Source: Escherichia coli (GTDB lineage Bacteria; Pseudomonadota; Gammaproteobacteria; Enterobacterales; Enterobacteriaceae). Taken from it: DNA of 64,000 nucleotides. Positions 15,554-18,772 of this stretch are shown one piece after another. The stretch lies in assembly GCF_041886205.1 (NCBI RefSeq), contig NZ_CP169029.1. The stretch is one strand, 5' to 3'. How positions within the stretch are numbered: position 1 is the first letter of the stretch; every line of letters begins with the position of its first letter. The notes under the pieces are model-generated. The model searched no databases, was not told the origin of the DNA, and saw nothing but the letters and a program-made list of their open reading frames with translations. The position numbers and the translations under genes were made by a program.

Positions 15554-16657
15554 ATGAACATAAAGGGTAAAGCGTTACTGGCAGGATGTATCGCGCTGGC
15601 ATTCAGCAATATGGCTCTGGCAGAAGATATTAAAGTCGCGGTCGTGGGCGCAATGTCCGGTCCGGTGGCCCAGTACGGTGACCAGGAGTTTACCGGCGCA
15701 GAGCAGGCGGTTGCGGATATCAACGCTAAAGGCGGCATTAAAGGCAACAAACTGCAAATCGTAAAATATGACGATGCCTGTGACCCGAAACAGGCGGTTG
15801 CGGTGGCGAACAAAGTCGTTAACGACGGCATTAAATACGTGATTGGTCACCTCTGTTCTTCATCAACGCAGCCTGCGTCTGATATCTACGAAGACGAAGG
15901 CATTTTAATGATCACCCCAGCGGCAACCGCGCCGGAGCTGACCGCCCGTAGCTATCAGCTGATCCTGCGCACCACCGGCCTGGACTCCGACCAGGGGCCG
16001 ACGGCGGCGAAATATATTCTTGAGAAAGTGAAACCGCAGCGTATTGCTATCGTTCACGACAAACAGCAATACGGCGAAGGTCTGGCGCGAGCGGTGCAGG
16101 ACGGCCTGAAGAAAGGCAATGCTAACGTGGTGTTCTTTGATGGTATCACCGCCGGGGAAAAAGATTTCTCAACGCTGGTGGCGCGTCTGAAAAAAGAGAA
16201 TATCGACTTCGTTTACTACGGCGGTTATCACCCGGAAATGGGGCAAATCCTGCGTCAGGCACGCGCGGCAGGGCTGAAAACTCAGTTTATGGGGCCGGAA
16301 GGTGTGGCTAACGTTTCGCTGTCTAACATTGCGGGCGAATCAGCGGAAGGGCTGCTGGTGACCAAGCCGAAGAACTACGATCAGGTTCCGGCGAACAAAC
16401 CCATTGTTGACGCGATCAAAGCGAAAAAACAGGACCCAAGCGGCGCATTCGTCTGGACCACCTACGCCGCGCTGCAATCTTTGCAGGCGGGCCTGAATCA
16501 GTCTGACGATCCGGCTGAAATCGCCAAATACCTGAAAGCGAACTCCGTGGATACCGTAATGGGACCGCTGACGTGGGATGAGAAAGGCGATCTGAAAGGC
16601 TTTGAGTTCGGCGTATTTGACTGGCACGCCAACGGCACGGCGACCGATGCGAAGTAA
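15554..16657 (+). CDS. livJ: Leu/Ile/Val-binding periplasmic protein LivJ
   Basis: ORF 15497..16657; start at [23 protein letters not shown] signal peptide (15554) gives the remembered 367 aa protein. Confidence 0.92.
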
Positions 16658-16713
16658 TCATTAATCGGCAACTTTGGGTTGCCGCCAAATTGCTAATATC
16701 GAGTACGTTGCTT

Positions 16714-16818
16714 CATGCCGGATGCGGCGTAAACGCCTTATCCGGCCTACAAGATCCAAAGAAATCAGTAAATTGCAACACACATTGTAGGCCTGATAAG
16801 CGTAGCGCATCAGGCAAT
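16714..16818. repeat. REP/BIME element (two inverted REP units)
   Basis: tgccggatgcggcgtaaacgccttatccggcctaca (about 16716..16752) and inverted tgtaggcctgataagcgtagcgcatcaggca (about 16786..16816) match the E. coli REP consensus. Confidence 0.8.
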
Positions 16819-16855
16819 TTCTCGTTGGTCATCACTTTTGAAATCAACTTGACGA

Positions 16856-17239
16856 TTAACGCTTCTCCCAGCCGCCCTGTTGCGCCGTAAATCCCAGTGC
16901 CTGCATAAACGCCGTCATCACACCGCGATCTTCCACGCCTGCATCCGCCATCCACCAGCATGAAACGCCAGGATTGTTACGCAAAACCTCTTCCAGCAGA
17001 TATTGCCCCACACCGCGACGTCGGGTGACTTCCCGCACACGCAGGGAATCCAGTGCTCCCTCGGTGCCGCTTAAGGTTACCCGTACGGCAGCGAGCAGGC
17101 GCTCGTTAAAACGCGCGGCGTAGATACGGTGGTTATCGTCAACCTGTAAAGAGGAAGGGGAATACTCCGGCCAGATCTTTTGCAGGTCAATCCGGTCCTG
17201 GTCGCTAAAGTTTTCTAATCGAATGATGGTCAGCTTCAT
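16856..17239 (-). CDS. panM: PanD maturation factor PanM/PanZ (GNAT fold)
   Basis: 127 aa ORF matching remembered YhhK/PanM; lies between livJ and livK on the opposite strand as in K-12. Confidence 0.88.
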   Translation of the reverse strand: MKLTIIRLENFSDQDRIDLQKIWPEYSPSSLQVDDNHRIYAARFNERLLAAVRVTLSGTEGALDSLRVREVTRRRGVGQYLLEEVLRNNPGVSCWWMADAGVEDRGVMTAFMQALGFTAQQGGWEKR

Positions 17240-17662
17240 GGGTAACCCGTGTAAATCACAAAAGTGGAACCAGTGTAGCGAAATAATTTAATCGGAGGCT
17301 TTCTCTTTTTTCTTTCTTTTGGCAGGTGATTAATTTTTTAACAGCAATAATTACAAAGTTAAAACATTAGAGAATGAAAAATACCCAGCATAATCCCCTG
17401 AATGGTAGTGAATTATTCCGCCCTTCGTGCCGTTATTTTATGCTGACAAAGGCACTTTTTTCTGTTTATCTATCAATAAATTCAGAATATTATCTGTTCT
17501 TAATCGACTGAAAAATATGGATTTTAATCGCTATTATCACAAAATACTGCGCTAAACCCTTAATCAGACAGGCAAAAACAGTGCAGTATAAAAAAAGAAC
17601 AGTCTGATTTGTTAACACATAAAAACAAAGCAACACAACATCACGAATGGGGATTTTTGACT

Positions 17663-18772
17663 ATGAAACGGAATGCGAAAACTATCATCGCAGGGATGAT
17701 TGCACTGGCAATTTCACACACCGCTATGGCTGACGATATTAAAGTTGCCGTTGTCGGCGCGATGTCCGGCCCGATTGCCCAGTGGGGCGATATGGAATTT
17801 AACGGCGCGCGTCAGGCGATTAAAGACATTAATGCCAAAGGGGGAATTAAAGGCGACAAGCTGGTGGGCGTGGAATATGACGACGCCTGCGACCCGAAAC
17901 AAGCCGTTGCGGTCGCCAACAAAATCGTTAACGACGGCATTAAATACGTTATTGGTCATTTGTGTTCTTCCTCTACCCAACCTGCATCAGATATTTACGA
18001 AGACGAAGGTATTCTGATGATCTCGCCGGGAGCGACCAACCCGGAGCTGACTCAACGCGGTTATCAATACATCATGCGTACTGCCGGGCTGGACTCTTCC
18101 CAGGGGCCAACGGCGGCAAAATACATTCTTGAGACGGTGAAGCCCCAGCGCATCGCCATCATTCACGACAAACAACAGTATGGCGAAGGGCTGGCACGTT
18201 CGGTGCAGGACGGGCTGAAAGCGGCTAACGCCAACGTCGTCTTCTTCGATGGCATTACCGCTGGCGAGAAAGATTTCTCCGCGCTGATCGCCCGCCTGAA
18301 AAAAGAAAACATCGACTTCGTTTACTACGGCGGTTACTACCCGGAAATGGGGCAGATGCTGCGCCAGGCCCGTTCCGTTGGCCTGAAAACCCAGTTTATG
18401 GGGCCGGAAGGTGTGGGTAATGCGTCGTTGTCGAATATTGCCGGTGATGCCGCCGAAGGCATGTTGGTCACTATGCCAAAACGCTATGACCAGGATCCGG
18501 CAAACCAGGGCATCGTTGATGCGCTGAAAGCAGACAAGAAAGATCCGTCCGGGCCTTATGTCTGGATCACCTACGCGGCGGTGCAATCTCTGGCAACTGC
18601 CCTTGAGCGTACCGGCAGCGATGAGCCGCTGGCGCTGGTGAAAGATTTAAAAGCTAACGGTGCAAACACCGTGATTGGGCCGCTGAACTGGGATGAAAAA
18701 GGCGATCTTAAGGGATTTGATTTTGGTGTCTTCCAGTGGCACGCCGACGGTTCATCCACGGCAGCCAAGTGA
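17663..18772 (+). CDS. livK: Leucine-specific periplasmic binding protein LivK
   Basis: ORF 17609..18772; start at [23 protein letters not shown] signal peptide (17663) gives the remembered 369 aa protein; paralog of livJ. Confidence 0.92.

Follow-up and report, generated by a model that had tools for sequence, protein, structure and literature searches.

Paralogues of the tufA/tufB type, duplicated genes in one chromosome, are kept nearly identical by gene conversion. The hisJ and argT genes of Salmonella and Escherichia coli are adjacent paralogues for periplasmic binding proteins that share one permease. In the published model of the LIV-I/LS system, as given in PMC12708883 with reference to Adams et al. 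1990, LivJ binds leucine, isoleucine and valine, LivK binds leucine, and both share LivHMGF. The livJ-livKHMGF genes are also among the listed targets of GcvB and Lrp (PMC4474525). We analysed livJ and livK (J and K in what follows) in a window of 64,000 nucleotides (nt) of E. coli DNA, contig NZ_CP169029.1 of assembly GCF_041886205.1, to which positions refer unless stated otherwise. A preliminary description had presented the two genes as highly similar paralogues with stretches of near-identical nucleotide sequence, forming direct repeats that are substrates for deletion or gene conversion. The best explanation of the whole of our results, to which we give a probability of about 0.9, is that livJ and livK are old duplicates that have evolved independently, make a very poor substrate for recombination and undergo deletion only rarely.

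The two genes are the classical genes for the Leu/Ile/Val-binding protein (LIV-BP) and the leucine-specific binding protein (LS-BP) of the LIV-I/LS system, whose paralogy and arrangement are textbook knowledge. Both livJ (15554-16657, + strand; precursor of 367 amino acids (aa)) and livK (17663-18772, +; 369-aa precursor), the first gene of livKHMGF, are identified by their open reading frames (ORFs), NCBIfam family NF011933, PDB matches and the RefSeq annotation. LivJ and LivK reach 695.9 and 700.5 bits in full-length matches to NF011933 (cutoff 477), and residues 24-367 of LivJ match the Leu/Ile/Val-binding protein structures 1Z15/2LIV with E = 9e-229, in a search that also returns the LivK structures 1USG/2LBP with E = 1e-182. 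The start codons of livJ and livK are 2109 nt apart. Between the genes lies panM (panZ/yhhK; 16856-17239, - strand), which encodes a 127-aa activator of the maturation of aspartate 1-decarboxylase (PanD) and matches the NF033213 equivalog at 190.1 bits (cutoff 68). The names, coordinates and arrangement in the preliminary description, with livJ and livK in the same orientation about 2 kb apart and panM on the opposite strand between them, are thus confirmed.

In comparison with livJ and livK of K-12, the window has the same genes, in the same order and with the same RefSeq annotation, and differs in nothing of substance. Its livJ DNA is 99.1% identical to that of K-12, the 3.7-kb region 98%, and its binding proteins are 99-100% identical to characterised LivJ and LivK proteins. 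The window LivJ carries Ser at precursor residue 133 (AGC, 15950-15952), a position that is Gly in the other 11 E. coli strains of our panel, in database LivJ-type sequences, including the main LivJ cluster, and in LivK. Over 15300-19000 the window is matched at 100% by one RefSeq genome, that of strain wlxctx60, which came from a Japanese black bear.

The similarity of livJ and livK is a similarity of proteins. The two products are identical at 283 of 369 aligned columns (76.7%), and a blastn match of 687 bits (E = 0), with 75% identity over 1029 nt, puts the likeness of the genes far above chance. Their nucleotide identity in a codon-based alignment is 73.5% (809/1101, with one 6-nt indel), which corresponds to a divergence of 26.5%. 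Synonymous divergence (dS) is saturated at 1.64, against a nonsynonymous divergence (dN) of 0.158 (dN/dS 0.096), and only 49% of third codon positions are identical. The two peptides that had been quoted as examples of near-identical nucleotide sequence, one of 13 residues and one of 31 residues ending in ILMI, are each the same in both proteins; the DNA that encodes them agrees at 33 of 39 positions (84.6%, 6 mismatches) and 79 of 93 positions (84.9%, 14 mismatches), respectively. With quoted blocks about 85% identical and a longest exact match of 26 nt, the near-identity claimed for the DNA does not hold.

The longest exact matches measure 26, 25, 25 and 16 nt; within any 60 nt, identity reaches 92% at most. 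The best-matching block (livJ 16202-16245, livK 18311-18354, both +) consists of a 26-nt exact run (16202-16227 and 18311-18336), two mismatches and the 16-nt run (16230-16245 and 18339-18354). A second exact block of 25 nt, which extends up to 34 nt in other strains, lies at 16283-16307 in livJ and 18392-18416 in livK (+), and a third, also of 25 nt, at 15816-15840 and 17925-17949 (+). Similarity can be detected from about 13 nt ahead of the start codons as far as 4 nt beyond the stop codons. The regions upstream of the two genes are unrelated except for C/A-rich tracts and the 11-nt motif GAATGGGGATT, which is found 7-17 nt before the start codon of livJ (15537-15547) and of livK (17645-17655), with the C/A-rich sequence on its 5' side.

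Homologous recombination in E. coli requires a minimum homology of about 23-30 nt (PMC3758752, PMC2327257). The exact J/K blocks, 26, 25 and 25 nt long in the window and 22-34 nt in 12 strains, lie right at the published lower bound. The preliminary description had itself noted that too low a nucleotide identity would speak against recombination, and this is nearly the situation found: the exact blocks barely attain the minimum, and a divergence of 26.5% is outside the few per cent within which exchange is not aborted by mismatch repair. A comparable case is that of the oxa genes, which have similar divergence and length and joints in the longer identical blocks. In that system, RecABCD recombination between genes of about 800 bp that differ by 22% was about 100-400-fold below that between identical genes (Martinsohn, Radman and Petit 2008, PMC2327257). 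Joints were concentrated in identical blocks of 16-17 nt, and lambda Red carried out the exchange with an efficiency about 100 times higher (PMC2327257). The oxa assay used selected phage and inverted repeats, whereas livJ/livK would involve an unselected chromosomal deletion between direct repeats. With its 73.5% DNA identity split into exact runs of no more than 26 nt, the livJ/livK pair serves very poorly as a substrate for recombination; the genes have diverged too far to act as recombination repeats, and exchange between them hardly ever takes place.

Where exchange does occur, it would be possible only at the few longest identical blocks and would be rare, and it may proceed by homeologous exchange mediated by RecA or by a phage recombinase. 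The product of a deletion between J and K would lose panM together with the livK promoter and 5' untranslated region (UTR). A ΔyhhK (panZ/panM) mutant needs beta-alanine or pantothenate in minimal medium (PMC3496974). Loss of panM by this route would likewise be expected to make the cell rely on an outside supply of beta-alanine or pantothenate, so that selection should act against the deletion. Like hisJ and argT, livJ and livK represent an old binding-protein duplication next to an ATP-binding cassette (ABC) permease operon, with copies that have diverged in specificity and been kept separate. Unlike that pair, they enclose the unrelated panM, which is essential in minimal medium, so a deletion carries an extra cost.

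With respect to gene conversion, livJ and livK are the opposite of tufA and tufB: besides their DNA divergence they form separate orthologue clades and lack conversion tracts. No conversion tract was detected in 12 diverse E. coli strains, in which no more than two consecutive sites among 287 informative ones had the state of the paralogue (permutation P at least 0.07). J/K nucleotide identity in these strains is 72.6-74.2%, and 21 sites are polymorphic in both genes, where about 20 would be expected from polymorphisms that arise independently in the two genes on third-codon positions. Homogenisation was likewise absent from 52 Enterobacteriaceae species, where the self-excess never exceeded 6 points per 120-nt window and no window came near 100% identity; within these genomes J and K are 70-78% identical, with a median longest exact run of 26 nt. 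Micro-conversion was considered for Mangrovibacter (L073) and Entomohabitans (L070) and rejected, given that a signal of at most 6 points per 120 nt is too weak and is explained equally well by shared codon usage. The two genes thus evolve independently, without concerted evolution, and the proposal that they are substrates for gene conversion finds no support in the strains, the species or the clean J and K clades.

The age of the duplication was approached through a comparative scan of one genome per species, which returned 80 loci. In 52 species of Enterobacteriaceae both binding-protein genes are intact and arranged as livJ-panM(-)-livK, with livH downstream wherever the locus reaches that far; the genera include Escherichia, Salmonella, Citrobacter, Klebsiella, Enterobacter, Kosakonia, Buttiauxella, Cedecea, Shimwellia and Mangrovibacter. 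In these species the J and K proteins are 85-99% and 85-98% identical to their E. coli counterparts. By contrast, the neighbouring families, represented by 16 species of Dickeya, Brenneria, Sodalis, Pantoea, Erwinia, Mixta, Serratia and Rahnella, show only one binding-protein gene, preceded by panM(-); where the locus extends far enough, rpoH lies upstream and livH downstream. In an unrooted tree, J, K and the single-copy proteins form three separate clans (bootstrap 50/50, 50/50 and 48/50), and the average identity is 92% between J proteins, 89% between K proteins and 76% between J and K.

The most parsimonious reading of these sequences is that one duplication took place in the stem lineage of Enterobacteriaceae. 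The ancestor would have had a single binding-protein gene downstream of a divergently oriented panM, and that gene would have been duplicated once in the stem. The present order may have arisen when panM and the binding-protein gene were duplicated in tandem and the first panM was then lost. The position of panM between the copies is then accounted for, because panM already preceded the single ancestral gene. From that point on the copies have evolved independently under strong purifying selection, which left proteins about 77% identical and synonymous sites saturated.

Deletion between the genes was looked for in 5,426 complete E. coli genomes, and a single one, that of strain EFF60 from swine-manure effluent (NZ_CP086678.1, assembly GCF_023373585.1), carries a livJ5'-livK3' fusion with panM deleted, a frequency of about 2 in 10,000. 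The survey found panM in 5,424 of these genomes and livJ in 5,425. Only one gene separates rpoH from livH in EFF60, and its annotation is that of a frameshifted livK. When EFF60 is compared with strain 7/2, its closest intact relative, all informative sites are of J type and then, beyond the junction, all of K type, while the flanks differ at 0 of 1500 and 1 of 1413 nt. The junction falls within the 16-nt identical run ACCCGGAAATGGGGCA (16230-16245 and 18339-18354 in the window), two mismatches away from a 29-nt run that is the longest exact block of that lineage, a situation that resembles the second hot spot of the oxa system. A further deletion, of 23 nt and with the 6-nt repeat CGCTGG on either side, shifts the reading frame of the J part and has the look of a true slippage mutation. 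To judge from its sequence, EFF60 is a real-looking, clean natural deletion chimera; a literature search found no paper on the strain.

No reciprocal K5'/J3' hybrid was seen in the complete genomes, where the 5,424 best matches to an 800-nt synthetic query were at 80-90% identity, although junctions outside alignment positions of about 370-1010 would escape this search. The proposal that the repeats are substrates for deletion stands in part: the predicted fusion exists in EFF60, with comparable ones in a few draft isolates, and it is rare. The screen for livJ-livK chimeras or panM loss that had been suggested as a check thus returned EFF60 as the one fusion in a complete genome. A candidate shortened locus in H39, with 82% coverage in 2,148 nt, was rejected as an artefact of joining pieces, since its annotation shows an intact livJ-ataRT-panM-livK. 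The same searches gave several side observations: one "E. coli" genome among the 5,426 matches no part of the 3.7-kb region, its repetitive extragenic palindromic (REP) elements included; four genomes have two places for panM and a few have three or four for the J/K probes, which suggests duplication of the whole region; and the K5'/J3' query returned 9 extra places.

Public protein collections gave a different picture. A synthetic protein made of LivJ residues 1-231 and LivK residues 232-369 matches about 30 clusters of the database at 98-99% identity, besides further ones in other species. The reciprocal control revealed that K5'/J3' hybrids are about as common as J5'/K3' hybrids in the protein database. 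Among E. coli-like clusters, the junctions map to aa 209-226 (nt 645-674, 26-30 nt exact) in nine J-to-K and nine K-to-J clusters, to aa 239-252 (nt 720-753, 25-34 nt exact) in 13 J-to-K and four K-to-J clusters, and to aa 88-121 (nt 262-286) in three clusters, all K-to-J. These intervals correspond to the 26-nt run of the best-matching block, where the metagenome chimera and loop contigs also have their junctions, to the second exact block and to the third, respectively. The K-to-J proteins are almost all encoded on contigs shorter than 3 kb. Six such contigs were checked: they are 2.0-2.16 kb long, have a coverage of 1.8-3x in the four that state it, and each carries panM and the hybrid gene, in an order that is rotated from contig to contig. 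The ends overlap in four of them, by 55 nt in three and by 42 nt in one, and in five of the six the unit length is 2098 or 2109 nt, the spacing of J and K. The matching J-to-K contigs, with the order rpoH-chimera-livH, are low-coverage metagenome or metagenome-assembled genome (MAG) contigs, and livH lies directly downstream of the chimera in every locus of the deletion type.

A main path that skips the region, together with a closed loop contig, indicates that a de Bruijn graph collapsed at a shared k-mer, and most database livJ/livK chimeras are probably assembly artefacts formed at the short exact blocks of the paralogues. The matches to the synthetic chimera had at first been taken for widespread natural recombinants, a reading that was reversed for most of them by the reciprocal control, the contig contexts, the junction mapping and the terminal overlaps. 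The collections hold dozens of LivJ/LivK chimera clusters (P0121-P0163 and P0004-P0031; contigs L100-L105, of ENA/metaSPAdes style), some of them named LivK at the source; ERZ1755978 and ERZ1303481 are examples of metagenomes with loop contigs. Two further entries, P0001 (568 aa) and P0002 (456 aa), combine a LivK- or LivJ-like body with PF02878 and PF00465 matches and rank first against either synthetic chimera; fusion or mis-calling of ORFs is the probable reason.

Some fusions in draft genomes and metagenomes are of another nature. In GCA_902847985.1, J and K are joined in register within a run of at most 5 nt. In GCA_026135125.1 (L107 4001-5182, on a 1-Mb contig), J nt 1-895 are joined out of register to K from nt 820 onward, with about 72 nt duplicated, a 393-aa in-frame product and panM deleted; this is a microhomology deletion, not an exchange between paralogues. 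The 198-kb metagenome scaffold_17 of ERZ28637849 (L106 3903-9208) has the order livJ-panM-[livK5'/livJ3']-panM-livK, in which the hybrid consists of the scaffold's own K followed by its own J, with an in-register 8-nt junction and two identical units of 2085 nt. This apparent tandem duplication is the reciprocal product of the deletion and parallels, in a present-day genome, the event by which livJ may have arisen. The fusions in the draft isolates GCA_014888435.2 and GCA_022666735.2 have junctions within long exact blocks, the former in the second, 25-nt block, and are ambiguous. EFF60, GCA_902847985.1, GCA_026135125.1 and L106, all known from assemblies, are not explained by k-mer collapse.

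Several explanations compete with that of old and rarely recombining duplicates. That the resemblance of livJ and livK comes from a recent duplication or a horizontally acquired second copy would fit their high protein identity, and we give it practically no credence in view of the dS of 1.64, the 49% identity of third positions, and orthologues of each copy that remain 85-99% identical, in conserved synteny, across the genera of Enterobacteriaceae. The preliminary description, taken further, would make the genes active recombination partners, with deletion chimeras and gene conversion as regular events in E. coli populations. Exact blocks of 22-34 nt do reach the lower bound for RecA-type exchange (PMC3758752), J5'/K3' fusions occur in one complete genome and several draft assemblies, and chimeric proteins are found by the dozen in the public protein collection. 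This account is nevertheless very improbable, with the fusion in only 1 of 5,426 complete genomes, no conversion tracts and clean J and K clades, and with database chimeras that occur in both orientations at the same longest blocks, the reciprocal ones, where checked, on low-coverage 2.1-kb loop contigs. The opposite possibility, that livJ and livK never recombine in nature and that EFF60 and the draft fusions are all artefacts of assembly or curation, draws on how common chimera artefacts are: nine J-to-K and nine K-to-J clusters share one junction of 26-30 nt, loop contigs at 1.8-3x coverage have 55-nt terminal overlaps and units of 2098 or 2109 nt that equal the repeat spacing, and the junctions of GCA_014888435.2 and GCA_022666735.2 lie exactly in long blocks. 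We consider it unlikely, because the EFF60 chromosome is finished and its 16-nt junction, with J-specific bases kept at alignment positions 674-675, should be too short for collapse at k of at least 21; the strain also has its separate 23-nt deletion at the CGCTGG direct repeat. Nor does such an account suit the junction of at most 5 nt in GCA_902847985.1, the out-of-register join on a 1-Mb contig in GCA_026135125.1, or the 198-kb scaffold L106, whose 8-nt junction needs real junction reads.

Other points weigh against the explanation that we prefer, namely old, independently evolving duplicates. The single-copy genes are 78% identical to J and 75% to K in spite of occupying the position of K; they are slightly closer to J, probably because K evolved faster, as three-point branch lengths of 0.137 against 0.103 suggest. 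To put the duplication earlier and let several families lose livJ would be less parsimonious, and an unrooted tree alone cannot place the duplication. The conversion-tract screen covered 12 strains out of 5,426 genomes, EFF60 is known from its assembled chromosome alone, and its pantothenate requirement is a prediction. A more far-reaching idea, that in-register livJ/livK exchange is real, recurrent and of low frequency in wild Enterobacteriaceae, and that the locus is a natural site for the shuffling of binding-protein specificity, is speculative, and we would rather doubt it than accept it.

The spacers on both sides of livJ differ in content from genus to genus. In the window, livH (18820-19746, +; ORF and RefSeq annotation), the first permease gene and common to both binding proteins, follows livK directly, together with livM, livG and livF, in a segment with the gene order ftsX-rpoH-livJ-panM-livKHMGF-ugpB. 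The panM-livK intergenic region (17240-17662, +) contains the livK promoter and 5' UTR. The livJ-panM spacer (16658-16855) contains REP-type repeated sequence, in keeping with the 11-55 places per genome at which the 3.7-kb query matched. An Rfam scan of 14000-19500 gave as its sole match a sub-threshold naRNA4/REP-like element at 16710-16747 (-).

Where the window has REP-type sequence, about a quarter of evenly spaced E. coli genome rows, including O157:H7 and O25:H4, have an ataR-ataT toxin-antitoxin pair between livJ and panM (L001 3207-4007, L002 3008-3808, L007 1608-2408, L010 2204-3004). The insertion increases the spacing of J and K from about 2.1 to 2.86 kb, and the 3' end of ataT overlaps that of the convergent panM by 4 nt. 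In other genera the inserts in this spacer range from 2 kb to more than 4.5 kb: four loci (L067, L069, L071 and L075) have about 2 kb extra between livJ and panM, and two (L014 and L021) have nothing liv-like within 4.5 kb after livJ. Several loci of the Enterobacter/Kosakonia type (for example L110 2538-3803) have, in the interval from rpoH to livJ, a gene of the aminotransferase family or some other insert, and H20 (ETEC4075) has an IS1397-family element in the liv region. Pseudescherichia vulneris (L025 5602-7647) has lost livK through a deletion that begins about 42 nt before the start codon and ends near codon 350, keeping panM, livJ and livHMGF, with a gene pair of the size of ataRT after livJ. 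In the related Escherichia sp. ESNIH1 (L031 6650-7755), livK is split into two reading frames. Such loss of livK is independent of recombination between J and K.

The homology of livJ and livK and their shared LivHMGF have been known for decades; in this respect the finding is already known and matters little for biology. The additions are small, namely a date for the duplication, one clean natural chimera, and the recognition that apparent chimeras in assemblies are mostly artefacts. When metagenomes are assembled from short reads at low coverage, the exact blocks of 22-34 nt seem to lead systematically to errors, in the form of deletion-like contigs and 2.1-kb loop contigs that have brought dozens of chimeric entries into protein databases, and screens of assemblies for paralogue chimeras or loss of panM need a control for reciprocal hybrids and loop contigs. 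If exchange between the paralogues were recurrent, the deletion would give rise to a lineage with a single hybrid LivJ/K under the livJ promoter, without panM and dependent on pantothenate or beta-alanine. The duplication form (J-panM-K/J-panM-K, as in L106) would add a third, hybrid binding protein, and the locus would recapitulate the tandem-duplication step that created livJ. The comparison across species places the livJ/livK duplication in the stem of Enterobacteriaceae and accounts for the position of panM between the copies; together with the result on mis-assembly, it is a by-product of modest practical value.

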